Below are positions 1 to 10,068 of a stretch of DNA of 32,000 nucleotides, in pieces. Numbering within the stretch: position 1 is the first letter of the stretch; each line of letters begins with the position of its first letter. Source of the DNA: Micromonospora parva (lineage in GTDB: Bacteria; Actinomycetota; Actinomycetes; Mycobacteriales; Micromonosporaceae); the NCBI RefSeq assembly GCF_040649675.1, contig NZ_JBEZFX010000001.1, positions 1,111,095 through 1,143,094 of the forward strand, in the 5' to 3' direction. The notes below the pieces were generated by a model that worked only from the letters and a program-made list of their open reading frames with translations, searched no databases and had not been told where the DNA came from. The position numbers were made by a program, and so were the translations under genes.

Positions 1-1512
1 GGTCACGACGGTCAGACCGACGCCGTGCTTGCGGGCGGACTTGGCGAGGGTCTCCAGGAACACGCCGCCGCGACCGCCGGAGAGCAGTTTCCACGCCTCG
101 TCCACCAGCACCATCCGCAGCACGTCCGGTCGAGCGCCGGAGGCGGTCGCGCCGCGTACGGTGAGCCAGATCGTGTCCAGGGTGAGCAGCGTGCCGACCG
201 GGTGAAGTTGCTCGGGTAGGTCCTTGATGGCGAAGACCACGAGGTGCCCCTGCGCGGCGGTGGTGGTCGGCCCGTCGAACAGGCCCTTCATGCTGCCGGC
301 GACGTAGGGGTGCAGGCGGGCGGCGACTCGGCGGCCCGCGTCGTCAGTGTCTTCTAGGGCGGCCATCACGTCGGCCAGTAGCGGCGCCGGTCGCTTCCAG
401 GTGCGAGGGTCGGTGGTGATTCCCTTGGCCCGGTACGCCGCGAGCACGGCAACATCGAGGGACCGGGCTTCGTCGCCGGGCAGGGGCGCGCTGACGGCGG
501 TGTCACCGCTGCCCATCACGGTCACGAGCGTGTGCAGGAACCGTGCCCGGTCGTTGAGCGCGTCGCCGTCACCGGGCGGCAGGTCGAGAGGGTTGATCTT
601 CACGCCGGCCGCGCCGAGGCGGATGACGGTGCCGCCGACCGCGTCGGCCAGCCGGAGGTACTCGTCTTCGGGGTCGATGACGAACGCCTCCACCCCGAGG
701 CACAGGTTGCGCAGCAGGTCGAGCTTGGCCAGGTAGGACTTCCCTTCCCCGGAGCGGGCGAGGATGACGGCGTTGTAGTTGGACTGCGCCCACCGGTCCC
801 ACACGACCACCCCGGCCGAGTGCAGGTTGAGCCCGAACAGCACCCCCATGCCGCTGTCCCCAGCGGTGTCCGGCAGGTCGGGGCTGGTGAACGGAAAGCT
901 CGCGGCGAGGGCGTCAGTGTCGAAGACCCGCTTCAACCCGAGCGCGTCGAACGCCAGGGGTAGGCCGCTGATCCAGCCCTGCAACTGCCGCCACGTCACG
1001 GGCGCGGTGTTGAGCAGCAGCGAGGCGGCCAGGGACCGCACCTCCGCTATCCGGTCGGCGAGGTCGTCTGGGCTGGTGCCGTGGACGGTCAGGTACAAGC
1101 CGAGGCGGAACAGTCGGGCCTCGCCTCGGGCGACACGCGTGGCCAGCTCGGCGGCGTCGGCCGCGGCGGCGTCGAGTTCGGGATCGTCGAGGCGGCCCTT
1201 GGCCGCGTCGTGGCGGCGGGAGGACTCGAACCGGCCGCGCTGCTTGCGCAGCCGCTCGGAGGCCACCGCCGGCGGGACCGGCTCGATGTGGAAGGCGGCG
1301 TCAACAAGGCCCGGGTAGGACAGAATCGGTTCGGCCCACCCGGGGCCGACCTCGGCCGGGTAGCCGACGACGGCGAGGGTTGCGCTGTAGCCGTCCCCGA
1401 CCCGGACGTGTCGGCCGTCGACCTCTACGGCGTCCGGGGAACCGGGCAGGATCGTGGTCGACTCGGGCGCGGGACGCCGCCGCGTCGGCAGCAGTGCAGA
1501 GAGCAGGCTCAT
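1..1512 (-). CDS. VirB4/TraC-like conjugative T4SS ATPase (first 504 codons; 3' end lies beyond the left edge)
   Basis: Absent from the ORF track because there is no stop in the window. My own minus-strand translation from ATG 1512 reads MSLLSALLPTRRRPAPESTT... It contains Walker A ILARSGEGKSYLAK and Walker-B-like RMVLVDEAWKLL. The frame stays open to base 1. ATGA start/stop overlap with the upstream gene at 1509-1512. Confidence 0.85.
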   Translation of the reverse strand, partial: MSLLSALLPTRRRPAPESTTILPGSPDAVEVDGRHVRVGDGYSATLAVVGYPAEVGPGWAEPILSYPGLVDAAFHIEPVPPAVASERLRKQRGRFESSRRHDAAKGRLDDPELDAAAADAAELATRVARGEARLFRLGLYLTVHGTSPDDLADRIAEVRSLAASLLLNTAPVTWRQLQGWISGLPLAFDALGLKRVFDTDALAASFPFTSPDLPDTAGDSGMGVLFGLNLHSAGVVVWDRWAQSNYNAVILARSGEGKSYLAKLDLLRNLCLGVEAFVIDPEDEYLRLADAVGGTVIRLGAAGVKINPLDLPPGDGDALNDRARFLHTLVTVMGSGDTAVSAPLPGDEARSLDVAVLAAYRAKGITTDPRTWKRPAPLLADVMAALEDTDDAGRRVAARLHPYVAGSMKGLFDGPTTTAAQGHLVVFAIKDLPEQLHPVGTLLTLDTIWLTVRGATASGARPDVLRMVLVDEAWKLLSGGRGGVFLETLAKSARKHGVGLTVVT

Positions 1513-2435
1513 AGGTCGTCACCTCCGGCAGATGTGGCGTAGGGCGTGAGGGCCGGGGCGGTGGGGTCGAGGCTGGCCGCGAGCCGCACCGTGGCATCCG
1601 GCCCATCGAGGACCCGGGCGGGAACCTCGCAGCCGGCGAGGGCACGCACCGCCTCGGCCGCGTGGTGCGCGGCGTGGTGCGGGCCGCGTCGGCTGCGCAC
1701 GGCGACGGTGACCTGCCGGTGCAGCAGCTCGCGCTGCCCGGCCAGGTCATCGAGGAACGCCACGTGCGCGCGGGCTGCCTCCTCCAACGCGGGGTGCGCC
1801 AGCCCCGGGGCGGCGGCGAGGAACCGGTCGGCGAGGTAGGTCAGGTCGACCCGTTGCGCCCGCACCACGATCTGCGCCGGGCCGTCGAGGCTGTGCAGCC
1901 ACCGCGCGAACCCAGCCACCAGGCCGTTCTGCTCCCCAGGTGTCCGCAGCCCGAATGCCACCGTCGAGGCGGCGACCAGGCCCGTCGTGCCGTCCGAACC
2001 GAGATCGACCAGCCCCTCGCCGGTAATGCCCCTCGCGGGCAGCCGCAGCGGTGCGGGCAGCGGTAGCCGTTCACCCGGACCAGCGGTGGTGACAACCCAC
2101 GCCGGAGCCGGGATGACCGGCCCGTCGGCCGGCACGAGCCGACGCGGACTGCGGCGGTGCCGCAGCGCCGCGAGGACCCAGGCGTCGAGACCGATGCCGT
2201 CCCGGCGGCCGACCGCGAGCAGGAACGCCCCAGCGGCAACCGGCATCGCACCCGCGAGGAACACCAGCGGATGCACGAGAGTCGCCACCGCCGTCCACAC
2301 CGCGTAGAGCAGCAGACCCGTCACGGCCAGGATCACCAACTGCCGTCCCGACATGCCGAACGCGAGCCTGTCCGGCCGCTCGATGTCTGCGGGAACCCGA
2401 GCCCGCATCGGAGCCTCGTCGCTGTGGCGGCTCAC
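1509..2435 (-). CDS. PrgI/TcpE-type (VirB3-like) T4SS membrane protein
   Basis: Track ORF of 308 aa. The N-terminus VPADIERPDRLAFGMSGRQLVILAVTGLLLYAVW plus a second hydrophobic span matches PrgI/TcpE-family proteins, which sit directly upstream of VirB4 in Gram-positive/actinobacterial transfer loci. GTGA overlap at 2432-2435 and ATGA overlap at 1509-1512. Confidence 0.65.
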   Translation of the reverse strand: MSRHSDEAPMRARVPADIERPDRLAFGMSGRQLVILAVTGLLLYAVWTAVATLVHPLVFLAGAMPVAAGAFLLAVGRRDGIGLDAWVLAALRHRRSPRRLVPADGPVIPAPAWVVTTAGPGERLPLPAPLRLPARGITGEGLVDLGSDGTTGLVAASTVAFGLRTPGEQNGLVAGFARWLHSLDGPAQIVVRAQRVDLTYLADRFLAAAPGLAHPALEEAARAHVAFLDDLAGQRELLHRQVTVAVRSRRGPHHAAHHAAEAVRALAGCEVPARVLDGPDATVRLAASLDPTAPALTPYATSAGGDDL

Positions 2436-4495
2436 CCCTGATCACCCCTCGGTTTCGATGACGAGCGCGGCACCGGACCGGACGATCGAGCCGGCGGTGG
2501 GGACGGCGGGGACGGGGACGGCCCGGTACGGACGGCGGTCGGACCCGCCGGGGTCGCACCAGCCGCCGGGGACGGGGACGGGCGCGGCGGCGGGGTCGGG
2601 GCCACTGATCGCCGACCGTCCGTGGACGGCGGGACGGACGAGGCCGGTGGACGAGGCCGGGGTGCGCTGGCGGCTGGTGCTCGCCGGGCGGCGGACGGGG
2701 TGCTCGGGTTGGCGGCGGGTTGCCCACTCGGGGTGGCGCGCCGCGCCGCCGTAGGCCGTGTCCCGGGGGTCGAGGCTCGTCGTGACCCGCCGGCTCCCGG
2801 TGCGGCCGGAGCTGTGGAGAACACCGGCGTGACCGGGGCAGGTGGCCGGCGCGGCGCGCTCTGTGGCGCTGGTGCGGCGGAGAACGCCACCGCCGGTGCC
2901 GCGCCACTGGGTGTCGCTCTCGGTGTCGTGGCCGTGGCATCGCTGAAGGCGACTCGGGCGGGCGGTGCGGCCGGGGCCGGTGGACTCGGCTGAGGCGCGA
3001 ACGGGTGAGAGAACTGCGCGGCCGGGACACCACCGGACGGCGCTGGCGGTGGAGTGGACGGGGCCGCCGGGTGGCTGAAGGTAGGGGCGGCGTTCGTCCC
3101 GGACGGCGCGGACAGCGGCGTATGGGTGACCGGGGCGTGGCTGAAGGCCGCCGGTCCCGGCGGGGACGGCGGGACGGGAGTCGGCCCGAGACGGGGCGGA
3201 CGAGGTGGACGGGGCGGACGGGGGCCGCCCGACGCTGGACGGGGACCGGGCGGACGAGGTGCCGTCCGTCCGGCGGTCCGGGCCGCGCTCGCGCCGCCCA
3301 GGATGCCGGCCGCCGCGCCGAGCGTCTTGATGGTCAGGTAGGCGTGCATGAGCTGGCCGAGCAGTCCCCTGCCGTTGCGCTGTCCGAGCGGGCCGAGGAC
3401 GAACTGCCGCATCCAGCCCGGCAGTTTGATCAGCAGCCAGAGCATCGTCAGGCAGACCAGGACGCCGAGGAGCCCGTCTGCGGTCGAGGGCACGCCCAGC
3501 ACGGTCGGCCCGGCGGGGGTCAGGAAGACCTTCACCGTGGCCATGACGACGATCGCCTGACCGATCTGCAAGCCAAGGCAGGCGGCGAAGGCACGCCACC
3601 AGGTATGGGCGATGCCTTCGGTGAGCGGGCTGGCATGGCAGATCAATGCCGCTGGCGCCACGCCGACGAGGATGACCAGCGCGGCCAGCCGCAGGATGAA
3701 AGTGAACTCCACAAGCAGGCACATCACGACCACGGCGACGGCCAGGACCACCATCAGGAAGCCCTTGCCCTGCAGGGCGTTGTCCGCGATCTGCCCAATG
3801 GCTGCGGCCGCGGCCGGGCCGTCCACCGTGTTCCCGGCGATGGCCACGGTGAGCGCGTTGGTAAGCACGATGGCCTGCTGACCGATGAGCAGACTGCCGT
3901 TAGCCAGCACCGCGCCCAGCGCGATCCGGGGCAGCACCTGCTTGAGCCCATGCTGGCTCTGCAGGGTCTCCCTGGTCGTGATGAGGAAACCGTTGGCGAC
4001 GATGAACAGCACGAAGACGCCATTGGCCGTGATCAGACTGGTCGTCCAGATTGCCTTGACGTGCTCGTTGTCGGTGAGGTCGGGGGTGGACAGCCACGAC
4101 GCGCCGAGGGCTTCCATCACCGGCTGAAGAGCCTGCTCGGCGGCCCAGACGACCAGGTCGACCACGGCCTTGCGGATCTGGCCCCCGATGTCGTACCAGG
4201 GCGGATCATCGTCAACGGATGGCTGGCCGGGAGTCGGGGCCGGGCCGGGCGTGGGTGCCGGCGTGGCCGGCGCGGAGGGAGGCGGGTCCACTCCCGGCGG
4301 GCGGACGCCAGGGTCAGGCACGCCGGGCGTTGGCGGCGTACCGGGTGCGGTAGCGCGCGGGCCGGGTGCCGGGCTCGGCTCGGCGTGCGCCGGCCCGGCC
4401 CAGGTCAGGGCAAGGCCGGCGAGGATCACCAGGCCGAGCAGCAGCAACGCCACCGGTCGGACCGGGCGGCGGATTCGGATCGCGAGGGCAGTCAT
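2432..4495 (-). CDS. VirB6/TrbL-like polytopic T4SS membrane protein with long Pro/Ala-rich C-terminal tail
   Basis: Track ORF 2432..4966. I place the start at the internal ATG 4495 (MTALAIRIRRPVRPVALLLLGLVILAGLALTWAGPAHAEP, signal/TM-like). The upstream 157 codons are Arg/Pro junk overlapping the pilin gene in another frame. The pilin stop and this ATG share a base (TGATGA). The centre has multiple hydrophobic spans (e.g. FLMVVLAVAVVVMCLLVEFTFILRLAALVILVGVAPAALI). The last 286 aa are Pro/Ala/Ser-rich. Confidence 0.7.
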   Translation of the reverse strand: MTALAIRIRRPVRPVALLLLGLVILAGLALTWAGPAHAEPSPAPGPRATAPGTPPTPGVPDPGVRPPGVDPPPSAPATPAPTPGPAPTPGQPSVDDDPPWYDIGGQIRKAVVDLVVWAAEQALQPVMEALGASWLSTPDLTDNEHVKAIWTTSLITANGVFVLFIVANGFLITTRETLQSQHGLKQVLPRIALGAVLANGSLLIGQQAIVLTNALTVAIAGNTVDGPAAAAAIGQIADNALQGKGFLMVVLAVAVVVMCLLVEFTFILRLAALVILVGVAPAALICHASPLTEGIAHTWWRAFAACLGLQIGQAIVVMATVKVFLTPAGPTVLGVPSTADGLLGVLVCLTMLWLLIKLPGWMRQFVLGPLGQRNGRGLLGQLMHAYLTIKTLGAAAGILGGASAARTAGRTAPRPPGPRPASGGPRPPRPPRPPRLGPTPVPPSPPGPAAFSHAPVTHTPLSAPSGTNAAPTFSHPAAPSTPPPAPSGGVPAAQFSHPFAPQPSPPAPAAPPARVAFSDATATTPRATPSGAAPAVAFSAAPAPQSAPRRPPAPVTPVFSTAPAAPGAGGSRRASTPGTRPTAARRATPSGQPAANPSTPSAARRAPAASAPRPRPPASSVPPSTDGRRSVAPTPPPRPSPSPAAGATPAGPTAVRTGPSPSPPSPPPARSSGPVPRSSSKPRGDQG

Positions 4496-4941
4496 CAGGC
4501 CACCCAGGCGCCGACGATGGTCACGAACAGCGGCGCGAGCAGCGCGAGGGCGTAGCCGATCGCGGCGGACCGCAGCGCGAGCTTGGCCTTCTCCACCTCG
4601 CCGGGGTCGCCATTCGCGGCCATGTAGCGCAGCCCGCCGACGGTCAAGAAGAGCGTGGCAACGGCGACGAGGATGCCGATCAGCCAGGTACGGATGTTGT
4701 TGGCGACCTGCTGGATCGACTCGACGGCCAGCACCACCGGGGCGGGCTCGGCCGCGTACGCCATCTGTGGCACGGCGACGAGGACTGCGGTCACCGCGGC
4801 GGTGTTGAGGAGGACCAGCGCGGCGCGGACGGTTCGAGGACGGTATCGACGCAGGCGGCGGACGAATGGCCGTCCGCGCCTGCCGGCCCCGAGGCGGCGG
4901 CCGGCCGCCGCCTCGGGGCACGGGAAGGGGACGTGGTTCAT
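4495..4941 (-). CDS. VirB2/TrbC-like pilin-type small membrane protein
   Basis: Track ORF 4495..4983 (TTG start). I prefer ATG 4941 (MNHVPFP...), preceded by GGAGG about 12 nt upstream. It has a basic leader, a hydrophobic span ending AYA/AEP (signal-peptidase-like), and two further TM spans (WLIGILVAVATLFLTVGGL; AAIGYALALLAPLFVTIVGAWV). It sits first in the T4SS operon. Confidence 0.6.
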   Translation of the reverse strand: MNHVPFPCPEAAAGRRLGAGRRGRPFVRRLRRYRPRTVRAALVLLNTAAVTAVLVAVPQMAYAAEPAPVVLAVESIQQVANNIRTWLIGILVAVATLFLTVGGLRYMAANGDPGEVEKAKLALRSAAIGYALALLAPLFVTIVGAWVA

Positions 4942-5168
4942 GGGGTTGGGCACCTCCGGTGCGCACGCCTCAGCAGCCCGCAACGGGGCATGGGTGCGCG
5001 AGTGGGCGACGAAGGCGGGACCGGACGATGCGCTTGGTGAGGTGACCTGTGGTGCCGACCGGCGCGGCCGTCCTCCTCACCGGGAAGGCGATGGGCCGGG
5101 GACCGTGCGGGGTGTCAGCGCCGTCAGCGGGTCCGGTCGGAACAGGTCACCTGCGCGGAAGAGTCCCG

Positions 5169-5204
5169 CACTAGGGGATTACAAATCCGAGCCTCGGATT
5201 GGAA
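5169..5204. repeat. Left copy of a 36-bp inverted repeat (CACTAGGGGATTACAAATCCGAGCCTCGGATTGGAA)
   Basis: Its reverse complement recurs at 6627-6662 with 35/36 identity. It contains nested palindromes GGATT-ACA-AATCC and AATCCGAG-C-CTCGGATT. It lies 22 bp downstream of the stop of the 5227-6048 gene. Confidence 0.9.
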
Positions 5205-5226
5205 ACCCGCAGCTCAGACAGGCTGC

Positions 5227-6048
5227 TTACAGACGCTTCCGCACGGAAGGCACGTCCAGGGCCAGGGTCGCGGTGGCCTCGTTGATCACGTCGGCGTACG
5301 GCTCGGACAGCTCCCCGGACTCGATCGCGGCCTTCAGCCGGGCGACGGCAGCCGTCCGGCGCTTGTAGAGGTTCCAGCGGGGCTGGCCGGTGCGCTCGGC
5401 GTAGGCGGTGAGACTGACCTCTTCCAGGTACGTCGCGCCGATCAGCTCCGCCTCCTGGACGGTGATGACCTCGGCGTTGACCGCGCGGGCGAGAACGAGA
5501 TCCGGATGGCCGTATGGGGCCGGCGGCAACACCGCCCCCGGGGCGTGGTTCGGCGCCCCGGACGAGGCCGGCTCCTGCTCGCGCAGCTCGGCGCGGGCCT
5601 TGGAGAACGCGGCGGTCAGCAGGTTGCCGACCACGCCGGGCTTAGCTACATCGACCGTGCCGAGGGCGCGGAGGAAGTGCTCGACGATGGCGGCCTGCAC
5701 GTCGCCGGTGAAAAGCTTGGCCAGCAGGTACGCCTTGAACCGCAGGCCCGGCAGCGCGACGCCGACCGCGCCGGCACGCCACGCCGGGTCTCCGGTACGG
5801 GCGCGCTGCGCCAGCAGCCGCCACGCCGCGTCCCGGGCGGCGTAGCCGCAGGACGGGTGCATGAGGATCGCCGACAGCTCGGGCAGTGCGATGCGACGGC
5901 GGGGCAGGCCGTGGCCGAGGCTGCGGCCGTCCACCGACAGCGGGCTCGACCCCTGCCCCATCAGCCGGAATCGGTACTCGATGTCGTTGAGCAGCGTCTC
6001 ACCGCGCCGGGAGACGGCTGGCTCGGTAGCGGGGGTACGACGGTCCAT
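5227..6048 (-). CDS. Sigma-70 region-4-like / HTH regulatory protein of the conjugative element
   Basis: Track ORF of 273 aa with GAGGGAG 7 nt upstream of ATG 6048. The C-terminal segment VQEAELIGATYLEEVSLTAYAERTGQPRWNLYKRRTAAVARLKAAI looks like a sigma region-4/LuxR-type HTH. No transposase DDE pattern was seen. Confidence 0.55.
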   Translation of the reverse strand: MDRRTPATEPAVSRRGETLLNDIEYRFRLMGQGSSPLSVDGRSLGHGLPRRRIALPELSAILMHPSCGYAARDAAWRLLAQRARTGDPAWRAGAVGVALPGLRFKAYLLAKLFTGDVQAAIVEHFLRALGTVDVAKPGVVGNLLTAAFSKARAELREQEPASSGAPNHAPGAVLPPAPYGHPDLVLARAVNAEVITVQEAELIGATYLEEVSLTAYAERTGQPRWNLYKRRTAAVARLKAAIESGELSEPYADVINEATATLALDVPSVRKRL

Positions 6049-6127
6049 GGTGGTGCTCCCTCGTGATGACCGTGTGCCGTCCGGCGGGAGTGCCGGTCAG
6101 CGCTGTGCCACCACGCCACCAGGGCCT

Positions 6128-6581
6128 TTGAACAGATCATGAACACTCCTGATCTTGTTCAAGGTGCCTCGACCCGTGTTCAACCCAGCCGCCGCCGACC
6201 CTCGTCAATGCGTCTCGACGTCAGCCGGCGGACACCCCGAGCCGGGGTGTTCAACCCGTCGCCAGGCTGTTCAAGACCCTTCATGCCGGGCGCAACCACG
6301 TCGGAACGGCACCCTTGAACACGCACCACCCACGGGGATGAAGCAGGACGCCACGAGCGACTCTCGCCGGGCGTGCTCACGCCCCATCGCGATCTTGTTC
6401 AAGGTCCCGATGCGGTCGGCCGCCTCGTGTTCAAGCAGATGACGATCTTGTTCAAACCAGCGAGGATCTTGTTCAACCGGTCACCGATACGTCGGCAATC
6501 CGCGTGGCTCGCGTGATGTCGACAGCCCGGTGTCTCGACGGCTGTGACCTGCGTGTTCAACCCGTTGAGGATCTTGTTCAA
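6128..6581. repeat. Iteron field: 11 forward and 2-3 inverted copies of TGTTCAA, five extended to GATCTTGTTCAA
   Basis: GATCTTGTTCAA occurs at 6151, 6391, 6444, 6465 and 6570. TGTTCAA cores occur at 6177, 6248, 6268, 6428 and 6554. Inverted TTGAACA occurs at 6128 and 6315, with a variant ATGAACA at 6139. Cores within clusters are spaced 20-21 bp: 6156/6177, 6248/6268, 6428/6449/6470 and 6554/6575. The region is non-coding, lying between the divergent genes 5227-6048(-) and 6670-7419(+). Confidence 0.9.
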
Positions 6582-6626
6582 CCGGGCGGCGTCGAGCGAC
6601 GCACCCGGATCGGCACTGGGCGCGGC

Positions 6627-6662
6627 TTCCAATCCGAGGCCCGGATTTGTAATCCCCTAGTG
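6627..6662. repeat. Right copy of the 36-bp inverted repeat
   Basis: TTCCAATCCGAGGCCCGGATTTGTAATCCCCTAGTG is the reverse complement of 5169-5204 with one mismatch, which falls in the hairpin arm. It ends 8 bp before the 6670 ORF start. Confidence 0.9.
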
Positions 6663-6669
6663 TCAGCGC

Positions 6670-7419
6670 TTGTCGGCGGACGTGGCCCACACGCCCATGC
6701 CGAAGCCCAGCTCCACCGCCCCCGGTGACCGGCCTCAGCCGGTACCAGTCGGGCTGCTCCTTCCCCGCACCCGCGTCCCGCGCACGCCCCGTCCGGGAGT
6801 GCCGGACTGGCACGGGCTCTCCCCGAACCACCTCGCCTACCTCATCCGCCGCTACACCGACGCTGGTGACGTGGTGCTCGATGTCGACGCGCACCCCGCC
6901 GCCATCGCCGCGACCGCCTACCTGCGTCGGGTACCGGCCCGGCTGGTCACCGGTCGCCACGGTCTGCGCGTGCGGCTCCTACCGCCCGCGCCCGGACGCC
7001 GGAACCGCCGCGTGGCGCGCTGGCCCGGTGCGCGCGTCGACCTGATCCTGGCGACGCTGCCGGGAGGGGCAAAGCGCCTCGCGCCAGACGACGTGGCCAC
7101 AGCGATGACCGCCTGGCGGCCTCTGCTGCGCCCCGGCGGGTTCCTGCTCGTCGGACTCACCACCCCGCAGCCGCAGCCGGGCGAGTTCAGCCACCGAGCC
7201 ACAGTCATCGCCGCCGCCCGCGCCGCCGGACTCTTCTACCACCAGCACATCCCCGCCGTCCTCGTCCCGCTGCCCGAGCACGAGCCACGCACCGCCCCGG
7301 AACACCCCGACGAGGCTGACGACGGCCGGCGCCTGCTCGCTGGCCGTCACCTTCCGGCGTTCCGGGACTTGCTCGTGTTCGGCACCACCGCCACCGGTGA
7401 GGAGAACACCCGTGCCTGA
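6670..7419 (+). CDS. Degenerate (probably catalytically inactive) paralogue of the downstream DNA methyltransferase
   Basis: Track ORF of 249 aa; start uncertain (TTG 6670, GTG 6682 or ATG 6697). It aligns by eye with the next gene. YLIRRYTDAGDVVLDVDAHPAAIAATAYLRR matches YAVRTYTNPGDVVLDPMAGIGTTVIEAMRLGR, so the GxGT SAM loop is lost. VDLILATLPGG matches VSLVITSPPYG, so SPPY is lost. LLRPGGFLLV matches LLRPGGHVVV. Confidence 0.6.
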   Translation: MSADVAHTPMPKPSSTAPGDRPQPVPVGLLLPRTRVPRTPRPGVPDWHGLSPNHLAYLIRRYTDAGDVVLDVDAHPAAIAATAYLRRVPARLVTGRHGLRVRLLPPAPGRRNRRVARWPGARVDLILATLPGGAKRLAPDDVATAMTAWRPLLRPGGFLLVGLTTPQPQPGEFSHRATVIAAARAAGLFYHQHIPAVLVPLPEHEPRTAPEHPDEADDGRRLLAGRHLPAFRDLLVFGTTATGEENTRA

Positions 7420-8638
7420 GCCTCGTCCGACGTTCCACACCGCCGGCCCCCACGCCTCCGAACCGCCGCACCCCAGCGCGTCTGACCTGGCAGCCCTGCT
7501 CGCCGAGGGCTACCTCGGCTCGGTCTGGCTCACCGGTCAAACCGCATCGCGCGACCTTCGGCGCGGCCGGTACACCCCGGAGTCGTTGACGCACCCCGGC
7601 AAGATGCTGCCGACCATCCCCCGGTACGCCGTCCGCACCTACACCAACCCCGGTGACGTGGTGCTCGACCCCATGGCCGGCATCGGTACCACCGTCATCG
7701 AAGCCATGCGCCTCGGCCGTCACGGTGTCGGGGTCGAGTACGAAGCTGAATGGGTCGCCAAGGCGGCGGACAACATCCGCCACACCCTCCAGGCAGGGGC
7801 ATCGGGCCGGGGCGAGATCTATCACGGGGACTCGACCGCGCTGCCGTCCCTGCTGCCGGCGAGCCTGCACGGGCAAGTCTCCTTGGTGATCACCTCACCG
7901 CCGTACGGGCCGTCCACCCACGGGCACGTCCGCACCCCCGGCCCGAGGCGCGGCAAGGTCCGCAAGATCCACCACAGGTACGGCGGCACGGACAACCTCG
8001 CCTACCGCAGTCACGGCGAACTCGCTGACGGGTTCACCGCGATCCTCGCCGGCTGCGTCCAGCTCCTGCGTCCCGGCGGACACGTCGTCGTCACCGCCCG
8101 CCCCTACCGCCGCCACGGCGAACTCATCGACATCCCCGGCATGGTCGCCGCCGCCGGCATCAACGCCGGCCTCGAACTCGTCGAGGAATGCATCGCCCTC
8201 ATATGCGGCGTCCGCGACAGCGTGATCATTCCCCGGGCCTCGTTCTTCCAGCAGAAGAACACCCGTGACGCCATCGCCACCGGCGACCCGCAATGGCTCG
8301 TCCAGCACGAAGACGTCGTGGTCCTCCGCGCCCCGCGGCCACCCCGGCACGACTTCACCCAGAGCCGATCAGCCAGCGTCCATGCGCACGCTGATCGGCT
8401 TGATGCCTTCACCCCGTCCCGGATGGATCGACGTGCACACCCGGCGCGCCCAGCGAACAGCAATCCCAACGACAGCGCCACCGACACCCGGTCCCACGCG
8501 GGCCGGGACGTTGAAAGGACACCCGATCCGTGCCCGCCCAACTCACAGCCCACCCACGGGGTCATACAGCCCAATGCAACCACCGATCCCGGCAGGCCAT
8601 ACCCGCCGCCCGGATCGCCCGACACGGCGGATCAGTGA
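7412..8638 (+). CDS. DNA methyltransferase (N4-C/N6-A type, SPPY motif)
   Basis: Track ORF 7397..8638. I prefer GTG 7412 (GGTGAGGAG upstream), which overlaps the previous stop by 8 nt. Motif I is VVLDPMAGIGTTVIEA and motif IV is LVITSPPYG. The family-typical end is HEDVVVLRAPR, followed by a low-complexity tail. Confidence 0.8.
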   Translation: MPEPRPTFHTAGPHASEPPHPSASDLAALLAEGYLGSVWLTGQTASRDLRRGRYTPESLTHPGKMLPTIPRYAVRTYTNPGDVVLDPMAGIGTTVIEAMRLGRHGVGVEYEAEWVAKAADNIRHTLQAGASGRGEIYHGDSTALPSLLPASLHGQVSLVITSPPYGPSTHGHVRTPGPRRGKVRKIHHRYGGTDNLAYRSHGELADGFTAILAGCVQLLRPGGHVVVTARPYRRHGELIDIPGMVAAAGINAGLELVEECIALICGVRDSVIIPRASFFQQKNTRDAIATGDPQWLVQHEDVVVLRAPRPPRHDFTQSRSASVHAHADRLDAFTPSRMDRRAHPARPANSNPNDSATDTRSHAGRDVERTPDPCPPNSQPTHGVIQPNATTDPGRPYPPPGSPDTADQ

Positions 8639-8847
8639 TGACCGCCCCGACTCCCGCCCAGTGGCGGCCCGACCCCCTCCTAACCATCGATGACGTCGCC
8701 GCCTGGCTAGGCAAGCCGAAGAACACCCTCTACGCCTGGCACAGCCGAGGCAAGGGACCACGCGCCATCCGCGTCGGCAACACCCTGCGCTACCGGCGCA
8801 GCGAAGTCGAACGCTGGCTCGACGACCACACCGACCCGGAGCGCTGA
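8638..8847 (+). CDS. xis: Excisionase / AlpA-type HTH DNA-binding protein
   Basis: ATG 8638 shares a base with the methyltransferase stop (GTGATG). The sequence LLTIDDVAAWLGKPKNTLYAWHSRGKGPRAIRVGNTLRYRRSEVERWL is the classic excisionase HTH_17 pattern. It sits directly upstream of the integrase. Confidence 0.8.
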   Translation: MTAPTPAQWRPDPLLTIDDVAAWLGKPKNTLYAWHSRGKGPRAIRVGNTLRYRRSEVERWLDDHTDPER

Positions 8848-8850
8848 ACC

Positions 8851-10068
8851 ATGGCCCGACCCCCACTACCCATCGGCACCTTGGGCACGATCCGTACCGA
8901 GAAGCTCGGCCCCAACCGGTACTGCGCCCGAGCCCGATACCGCGACCACGACGGCAAAACCCGCGACGTCGAGGCCACCGACACCACCGCCCCCGCCGCC
9001 ATACGGGCGCTCAAAGTCAAAGTCCGCGACCGTGTCGCCCCTAACGACGACGAAATCACCAGGGAGACGCACGTCAGCACGCTCGCCGCTCTGTGGCTGG
9101 AGGAGATAGCCGCAGAGGAACGGGTATCGCCGCAAAGCATCAGCAGGTACGAGATCAGCGTGCGCGTCTCGATCGTGCCGGCTTTGGGTGAACTACGAAT
9201 CCGAGAGGCCAGCGCAGGCCGCCTCGACAAGTTCCTGCGGAAGATAGCCGAGGACCGTCCCTCAGCCGCCAAGAGCGCCAAGGTCGTCCTCGGCCAGATG
9301 TTCGCCCTGGCCGTCCGCCGGGGTGCGCTCACGACAAACCCCATCCGCGACACCGGCCAACTACGAAAGCCCCGCAAGAAGGTCGTCGCGCTTGATCGGG
9401 AGCAACTGGACGACGTTCGTTCGGCGATCCGGAAGTGGCAGCAGCCCACCCCGGGCAAGTCGGGGCCTCGGCCCACGAGCGACCTGGCCGACATCGTTGA
9501 CCTCATGCTCGCCACCGGTGCCCGCATCGGCGAAATCCTGGCAGTGCGGTGGGAAGACGCCGACCTCGCCGCTGAACATCCCACCCTCACGATCTGCGGC
9601 ACCATCATCTACATCAAAGGCAAAGGCTTCTTCCGGCAGGAATGGACAAAGAGCGATGCCGGCTACCGCTCAGTCGTCCTGCCACGATTCGCCGTCGGGA
9701 TGCTCTTGGGGCGCAAGCTCACCGCCGCCGCCGACCCCAACGACGCGATCTTCCCCTCCCGACGTGGCACCTGGCTGTCTCCACCTAACGTTCGCCGCCA
9801 GTGGCGCGCAGCCCGCGCTGACACCGGCCTTGAATGGGTCACTCCCCACACGTTCCGCAAGACCGTTGCCACCTTGATCGACAAGGAGGCCAGCACAGAA
9901 AGCGCCGCCGCACAGCTCGGCCACGGGAGTAAGGAGACCACCAAGAAGCACTACATCGTTAAGCCCGCCCTTGCCCCCGACAGCTCTGCCATCCTCGAAC
10001 GGCTCGGGGGCAGGTCGGAGTCAGGCGATTCCGAACCCCGCAACCCTGGCCCGACCCGGACCGCATAG
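8851..10068 (+). CDS. int: Tyrosine recombinase / phage-type integrase
   Basis: Track ORF of 405 aa. Catalytic pattern: ATGARIGEILAVRWEDAD (Arg), TPHTFRKTVATL (H-x-x-R), LGHGSKETTKKHY (His...Tyr). Confidence 0.9.
   Translation: MARPPLPIGTLGTIRTEKLGPNRYCARARYRDHDGKTRDVEATDTTAPAAIRALKVKVRDRVAPNDDEITRETHVSTLAALWLEEIAAEERVSPQSISRYEISVRVSIVPALGELRIREASAGRLDKFLRKIAEDRPSAAKSAKVVLGQMFALAVRRGALTTNPIRDTGQLRKPRKKVVALDREQLDDVRSAIRKWQQPTPGKSGPRPTSDLADIVDLMLATGARIGEILAVRWEDADLAAEHPTLTICGTIIYIKGKGFFRQEWTKSDAGYRSVVLPRFAVGMLLGRKLTAAADPNDAIFPSRRGTWLSPPNVRRQWRAARADTGLEWVTPHTFRKTVATLIDKEASTESAAAQLGHGSKETTKKHYIVKPALAPDSSAILERLGGRSESGDSEPRNPGPTRTA

Follow-up and report, generated by a model that had tools for sequence, protein, structure and literature searches.

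The 32,000-nucleotide (nt) stretch of the Micromonospora parva genome analyzed here (NCBI RefSeq assembly GCF_040649675.1, contig NZ_JBEZFX010000001.1, positions 1,111,095 to 1,143,094), which we call the window, carries part of an integrative and conjugative element (ICE). Within it, two inverted repeats, the arms, bracket an open reading frame (ORF) for a 273-amino-acid (aa) protein (positions 5227 to 6048, minus strand) and a field of TGTTCAA iterons (approximately 6128 to 6581; 10 plus-strand and 2 minus-strand copies, with a distance of 21 nt between several of them). Each arm heads an operon that runs outward. On the left, on the minus strand, lie the type IV secretion system (T4SS) genes of a conjugation operon (1 to 4966), which encode a TrbL-like protein of 844 aa, a PrgI-family protein, and a VirB4-like protein. 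This operon continues leftward past the window for at least approximately 9 kb with genes for a TrwB-like coupling protein, a Replic_Relax relaxase, and an M23 peptidase (C1:1091095-1111094). On the right, on the plus strand, an operon at 6697 to 10068 encodes orf249, which is a weak paralog of the adjoining DNA methyltransferase, then the methyltransferase itself (7397/7412 to 8638), an HTH_17 excisionase-type protein (8635 to 8847), and a tyrosine integrase (8851 to 10068). The question addressed here is what the two arms do, and the reading that we come to favor is that they are a pair of outward-facing promoters.

A repeat search of the window delimited the arms at 5169 to 5207 and 6624 to 6662; they are 39 nt long, complementary at 37/39 positions (95%), and 1,416 nt apart. 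The original prediction for this locus had described near-perfect 36-bp inverted repeats at 5169 and 6627, and these were confirmed: the 36-mer matches 5169 to 5204 on the plus strand with no mismatches and 6627 to 6662 on the minus strand with one, and it had no match in 100 dinucleotide shuffles. The coordinates likewise bear out its statement that the repeats enclose the gene for the 273-aa regulator together with the iteron field, and reading the sequence directly shows the three GGATT/AATCC units that it assigned to each copy. The two arms differ from one another in their central 5 nt (GAGCC versus GGGCC) and in their outer flanks (GAGTCCCG versus TCAGCGCT). Comparison of these flanks revealed no target-site duplication around the arms, as had been reported. 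In the 7.07-Mb M. parva genome, a motif search of the whole assembly found the arm motif at just two sites, which are the two arms, and a degenerate search of the same genome for further promoter copies returned the arms and unrelated chance matches only. Because only two copies are present in 7.07 Mb, the arms are not a dispersed element of the repetitive extragenic palindrome (REP) type, the case that would have counted against the original prediction; the motif is unique to the module.

The same arrangement is found in related bacteria. Among 401 family genomes, 18 from 11 genera carried a 31-nt version of the arm motif (three mismatches or fewer), nearly always as an inverted pair. The distance between the arms in these relatives is approximately 1.45 kb, with 5 to 11 kb in four genomes. 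Gene mapping on 20 fetched regions gave an invariant order of T4SS genes, arm, 273-aa gene, iterons, arm, orf249, and methylase. Across 79 loci that encode homologs of the 273-aa protein (95% down to 38% identity), one arm lies 15 to 90 nt after the stop codon of that gene and its inverted partner lies approximately 400 to 760 nt before the start codon, or farther where DNA has been inserted. This placement holds in all Micromonosporaceae loci and in several Pseudonocardiaceae loci, down to approximately 40% protein identity, with diverged arm sequences. Where the arms are widely spaced, the extra DNA sits in or beside the iteron field: in some relatives 2 to 10 kb lies between the sigma-like gene and the right arm, which keeps its place beside orf249. 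The iteron field served as the insertion place for 2 to 10 kb at loci L035, L039, L040, L033, L064, and L072, and the array is split in L035 and L039. The TGTTCAA word is retained across clades even where the arms have diverged (L088/L091/L096). Judged by the sequence around them, third copies of the motif in genomes G055 and G237 (L047/L048) look like left-arm relics beside another element and are uninformative.

Near-perfect inverted repeats that bracket a discrete 1.4-kb module, with a tyrosine integrase gene 2.2 kb away, could be recombination sites, either the crossover points of an invertible switch or the inverted-repeat ends of a cassette that transposed into the element in the past. 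Both had been offered in the original prediction, and we now regard either as very improbable. In many species, the arm downstream of the 273-aa gene is followed by a T4SS-type leader (46/46) and the arm upstream of it by an orf249-type leader (35/35); the swapped state was found in 0/46 and 0/35 arms, respectively. The centers of the two arms in an element usually do not match, a difference that would impede strand exchange. A cassette is opposed by the absence of a target-site duplication, a transposase, extra genomic copies, and any plasmid or other context; a search of a plasmid database with the 273-aa protein gave no match. The outer flanks are also conserved and syntenic in all relatives, so there is no empty site among the loci seen. 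The locus resembles the fimS and hin/hix switches in that a segment of about 1 kb between two operons has short inverted repeats on either side, but it differs from them in showing no second orientation in any of 46 genomes, in its unlike arm centers, and in having no dedicated invertase. These results retire the readings of the module as a phase-variable switch and as a mobile cassette.

We aligned 73 distinct arms, each read outward. Two near-invariant blocks emerged, T-C-n-A-A (arm positions -20, -19, -17, and -16) and A-T-n-T-G-T-A (-3 and -2, then 0 through +3), with no indel needed between them. The stretch that separates the blocks is variable and G+C rich. Counted from the AA of the first block to the GT of the second, the interval is 16 nt; written as hexamers (TTTCCA or TGTCGA and TGTAAT or TGTATC), the geometry is 6-16-6. 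Similarity among arms stops 7 to 9 nt past the second block, at a conserved GTG, after which two different leaders follow. The distance from the first block to this GTG is 36 to 37 nt, which is the span from a -35 element to position +1. The arms show several features expected of an alternative-sigma-dependent promoter: two short asymmetric blocks at a fixed distance, a variable spacer, and a codirectional operon nearby that the site faces. Compared across the 28 nt that run from the -35-like through the -10-like block, a single element's two arms share 85% identity, versus 55 to 78% for comparisons between clades; therefore, both sites evolve together.

In the M. parva element, the left arm (5169 to 5207, minus strand) would constitute a promoter, PL, directed leftward into the T4SS operon. 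Its candidate -35-like block is TTTCCAA (5205 to 5199), its spacer contains the palindrome AATCCGAGGCTCGGATT, its candidate -10-like block is TGTAAT (5183 to 5178), and the conserved GTG at 5171 to 5169 marks the putative +1 region. The repeat itself, the fixed block spacing, and the T4SS-type leader that always lies beyond it argue for this assignment. The same conservation evidence applies to the right arm (6624 to 6662, plus strand) as a proposed promoter, PR, directed rightward into the orf249, methyltransferase, excisionase, and integrase genes, with CTTCCAA (6626 to 6632) as the -35-like block, TGTAAT (6648 to 6653) as the -10-like block, and the conserved GTG at 6660 to 6662. Promoters firing inward were also considered and are unlikely, given the inserts of 2 to 10 kb between the right arm and the sigma-like gene and the location of the conserved leaders on the outer sides.

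Hairpins in RNA or single-stranded DNA are another conceivable function of such repeats, whether as a bidirectional terminator or insulator pair, as an attenuator based on the two alternative hairpins, or in conjugative processing (an origin of transfer [oriT] or a single-strand origin). The left arm is located 19 nt after a stop codon, a consensus scan gives one terminator-like site at this arm, the three GGATT/AATCC units permit two alternative stems, and most single substitutions in the stems leave a G-T wobble on one strand. Folding of the arms was nevertheless no more stable than that of shuffled sequences: the minimum free energy z-scores of the window arms were -0.9, -0.8, -1.1, and +0.4, of which -0.9 and -0.8 belong to the transcribed strands. 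In relatives, z-scores ranged from approximately -2.4 to +0.8 in the close clade and from approximately 0 to +1 in the Actinoplanes clade, where the arms have no common stem. The arms also lack a U-tract, the right arm follows no gene, and an Rfam scan of the window produced no matches. As for conjugative processing, the relaxase gene is approximately 10 kb away from the arms, and two inverted oriT copies would have no rolling-circle purpose. We think it improbable that the arms act as hairpins. The units on which the original prediction based two mutually exclusive hairpins exist, but the hairpins are weak. Its further suggestion of an RNA element shared by the two transcripts is unlikely, because arm similarity ends at the GTG, the proposed transcription start, and the RNA would then lack most of the arm.

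A more serious contender holds that the arms are operators at which a conventional regulator, either the 273-aa protein or another protein of the element, blocks or modulates transcription begun farther inside. On the left these inner transcripts would arise by read-through of the 273-aa gene, and on the right they would come from a promoter within the iteron field. The conservation, the pairing, and the concerted evolution of the arms fit this explanation as well, and the left arm does lie in the read-through path of the 273-aa gene. Moreover, arm centers of the close clade carry the palindrome AATCCG-N5-CGGATT, for which one compensatory variant, AATTCG/CGAATT, was seen (L042), a pattern typical of operators for dimers. 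However, the palindrome is missing from the Actinoplanes clade, where both asymmetric blocks persist at their fixed spacing. It is a clade feature and not the conserved core, and it may be an added operator or a by-product of the A/T-rich spacer ends. A scan of 4800 to 6900 for sigma70-type promoters found none inside, and where 2 to 10 kb parts the right arm from the inner region, the arm stays by orf249. Finally, the 273-aa protein has both sigma-like domains and not a helix-turn-helix (HTH) domain alone. We consider operators for a conventional regulator unlikely. Among the options raised in the original prediction, paired sites for a binding protein thus survive, sharpened to two copies of one probable bipartite promoter, whereas the terminator or insulator version of that option is weak, with hairpins that are no more stable than shuffles and not conserved in the Actinoplanes clade.

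The 273-aa protein has more than 500 homologs, mainly annotated as hypothetical. An AlphaFold (AF2) model built from 34 homologs, with a predicted local distance difference test score of 79.5, shows a helical domain, a disordered linker (residues 160 to 178), and a four-helix HTH domain. An N-terminal extension of approximately 100 aa precedes a sigma2-like region (approximately aa 100 to 158), the linker, and a sigma4-like HTH region (182 to 244). When the model was compared with the PDB by Foldseek, all of the top 50 matches were sigma factors, including SigL, WhiG, SigB, sigmaE, CnrH, BldN, SigK, and SigW, and isolated region 2 of sigmaE superposed on it with a root mean square deviation of 3.0 and a template modeling (TM) score of 0.58. 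In an hhalign comparison of the family profile with 25 extracytoplasmic function (ECF) sigma factors of the same genome, aa 100 to 244 aligned collinearly with sigma2 plus sigma4 (84% probability; E value, 7.6e-6). PHROG family 3512, "sigma factor," was matched by 7 of the 34 homologs (best E value, 2e-5), and 4 or 5 of the 34 gave weak Sigma70_r4/ECF Pfam matches. Foldseek and hhalign thus agree on a sigma2 domain followed by a sigma4 domain. From the model and the profile comparison, the 273-aa protein looks like a very divergent two-domain ECF-type sigma factor, and binding to core RNA polymerase is a prediction.

Taken together, these observations led us to favor, by a modest degree, the interpretation that the arms are twin outward promoters read by the element's own sigma-like protein. 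We infer that the arms act as promoters, that transcription starts at the GTG, and that both arms are read by the 273-aa protein bound to core RNA polymerase. Under this model, each arm would be a bipartite promoter composed of a -35-like TC.AA, a fixed 16-nt interval, and a -10-like TGTA(A/T)(T/C), with transcription beginning approximately 8 to 10 nt past the -10-like block, at the conserved GTG, the point beyond which the arms cease to be similar. The divergent ECF-type sigma factor would direct RNA polymerase to both arms. The left promoter would drive the long conjugation operon with its T4SS, coupling protein, and relaxase genes, and the right promoter would drive orf249 and the DNA methylase, excisionase, and integrase genes, so that a single protein could switch on transfer and excision together. 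Variants of the -35-like and -10-like blocks shift together with clade-specific residues in two helices of the protein, the recognition helix of sigma4 and the helix of sigma2. This covariation is consistent with the promoter model and is not proof of it, because it tracks phylogeny.

Several points weigh against this interpretation. The 273-aa protein fails the curated sigma factor models: searches of Pfam and NCBIfam gave no assignment above the cutoff, its TIGR02937 score is 12.9 bits against a cutoff of 42.9, and it is not among the 56 Sigma70_r2 matches of its genome. The best Foldseek E value is a weak 6e-3, and whole-chain TM scores are approximately 0.2 to 0.3. Since the covariation of motif and protein follows phylogeny, it does not count as independent evidence. 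Position 2 of the -10-like block is not the A that housekeeping promoters have there, and the distance of this block from the AA of the -35-like block is approximately 2 nt shorter than the textbook spacing of ECF promoters. The conserved iterons adjoining the gene could be the true target of the HTH domain, and it is equally conceivable that another protein uses the conserved bipartite site as its operator. The possibility that the iterons are copies of the -35 block was rejected, as TGTTCAA stays the same from clade to clade and the -35-like block does not.

The proposed promoters are separated from their operons by leaders that differ from each other, each kept at the nucleotide level down to approximately 50% protein identity. 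The right leader, TCAGCGCTTGTCGGCGGACGTGGCCCACACGCCC, occupies the 34 nt from the arm to ATG 6697 (6663 to 6696, plus strand) and is nearly invariant among relatives. The original prediction had placed the right repeat 8 bp before an operon starting at 6670. The gap to TTG 6670 is in fact 7 nt, and this codon is not conserved (it is CTC in many relatives), nor is GTG 6682, whereas ATG 6697 is conserved; one relative has a 1-nt indel just before it. Because TTG 6670 is unconserved and because of this indel, orf249 probably starts at ATG 6697, 34 nt after the arm. The leader before ATG 6697 has no recognizable Shine-Dalgarno sequence.

On the other side, a conserved noncoding leader of approximately 200 nt (4967 to 5168, minus strand) connects the left arm to the first T4SS gene. 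No conserved small ORF was found in it, and RNAalifold returned no consensus structure for this leader from 25 diverse loci. It opens with the palindrome GTGCGG-N7-CCGCGC (5171 to 5153), which starts precisely where the left arm ends and is found in most relatives. When the stem GTGCGG/CCGCGC was specified by hand, 86% of cells were paired and no compensatory changes were seen; because these are absent, it remains a conserved palindrome only. It may serve as a stem-loop at the 5' terminus, as an operator, or to terminate transcription of the sigma-like gene. Also within this leader is an 11-nt inverted repeat, AGGTGACCTGT at 5040 to 5050 and ACAGGTCACCT at 5142 to 5152, which, from its sequence, could close a stem-loop of approximately 90 nt.

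The two leaders share a direct repeat of 19 to 20 nt on the plus strand, GTGTCAGCGC-C-GTCAGCGG at 5112 to 5130 and GTGTCAGCGC-TT-GTCGGCGG at 6660 to 6679. The left leader, read on its own strand, thus contains CCGCTGACGGCGCTGACAC (5130 to 5112). The right copy starts within the last 3 nt of the right arm, and the left copy lies 40 to 57 nt beyond the left arm. The repeat has no other copies in the genome and is kept in relatives. Therefore, either the outward leader RNAs would be complementary over approximately 19 nt or one protein would bind both copies; tandem TCAGCG half-sites within the repeat are a possible common protein site. Farther out, a 23-nt inverted pair with 83% identity (CCGGTGAGGAGGACGGCCGCGCC at 5061 to 5083 versus CCGGTGAGGAGAACACCCGTGCC at 7394 to 7416) is also present in relatives L059 and L061. 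Its right copy holds the ribosome-binding site and the probable GTG start (7412) of the methylase, and its left copy has GCG in place of that codon. The pair may be the trace of an inverted duplication that was once longer. An anticodon-loop look of GGATTACAAATCC was dismissed as coincidence, the tRNA scan of the window being negative.

Two further observations concern the surroundings. Farther along the minus strand, beyond the M23 peptidase gene, lie genes for a large MarR-type protein, a DUF932 protein, and an AIPR abortive-infection protein. Elsewhere in the genome, C1:301180-301974 encodes a paralog 31% identical to the 273-aa protein, with TGTCAC/GTGACA repeats upstream and a strong hairpin after the stop codon; no arms of the present type were found at this locus.

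A broader proposal can be built on the twin-promoter model, although we regard it as speculative and rather doubtful. In this scenario, the 273-aa protein would found an unrecognized, ICE-specific branch of single-chain ECF-like sigma factors, marked by the N-terminal extension and the lack of a curated model. Its whole regulon would be the two mirror-image promoters that bracket its own gene, and in T4SS-type ICEs of several actinomycete families it would be the master switch that turns on transfer and excision. The iterons would set the threshold for production of the sigma factor, and the 19-nt complementarity of the leaders would couple the two operons posttranscriptionally. A predicted master sigma factor with exactly two target promoters offers a simple and directly testable account of how such elements commit to excision and transfer. 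In actinomycetes that make antibiotics, the clade-specific variants of sigma factor and promoter could also find use as orthogonal parts for gene expression.

T4SS-type conjugative elements of actinomycetes were cataloged in 2011 (PMC3218068), and the literature on actinobacterial ICEs that we examined contains no description of such a regulator or motif. The layout recalls the immunity region of phage lambda. There, OL/PL and OR/PR flank cI, the operators overlap housekeeping promoters, and the product of cI is a repressor. In both cases a regulator gene is bracketed by inverted, related sites, with outward transcription, predicted in the present case, into two arms of the element; the analogy is one of layout only, since here the bracketed protein resembles a sigma factor and the sites have the look of dedicated promoters. 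Closer parallels are offered by the ECF (group 4) sigma factors and by SigN of plasmid pBS32. The predicted domain order of sigma2, linker, and sigma4, the AA-containing -35 and GT-containing -10 blocks at rigid spacing, and a regulon adjoining the sigma gene are features in common with these. Unlike ECF sigma factors, the 273-aa protein falls below the Pfam and NCBIfam cutoffs and carries an N-terminal extension of approximately 100 aa, and no anti-sigma factor gene is evident near its gene. To our knowledge, TC.AA-N16-GTA is not a described ECF motif.

The closest known system is Sig7-8 of Tn916, an ICE-encoded sigma factor that activates the main promoter of the element and on which both excision and conjugation depend (Gomberg and Grossman, bioRxiv 10.64898/2026.10.01.756105); SigN of pBS32 is cited in the same work. 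Like the pair formed by Sig7-8 and Psig7, the locus described here would give an ICE its own alternative sigma factor as an activator, although in our case this is predicted only. The two systems, compared by description and not by sequence, differ in several respects. Sig7-8 is a split, two-subunit sigma factor from Firmicutes with one autoactivated promoter upstream of its own genes, whereas the M. parva element has a single 273-aa chain, two promoter copies that would face away from its gene, and an upstream region filled with iterons. The switch predicted here would thus parallel, in a distant phylum, the one newly shown for Tn916.

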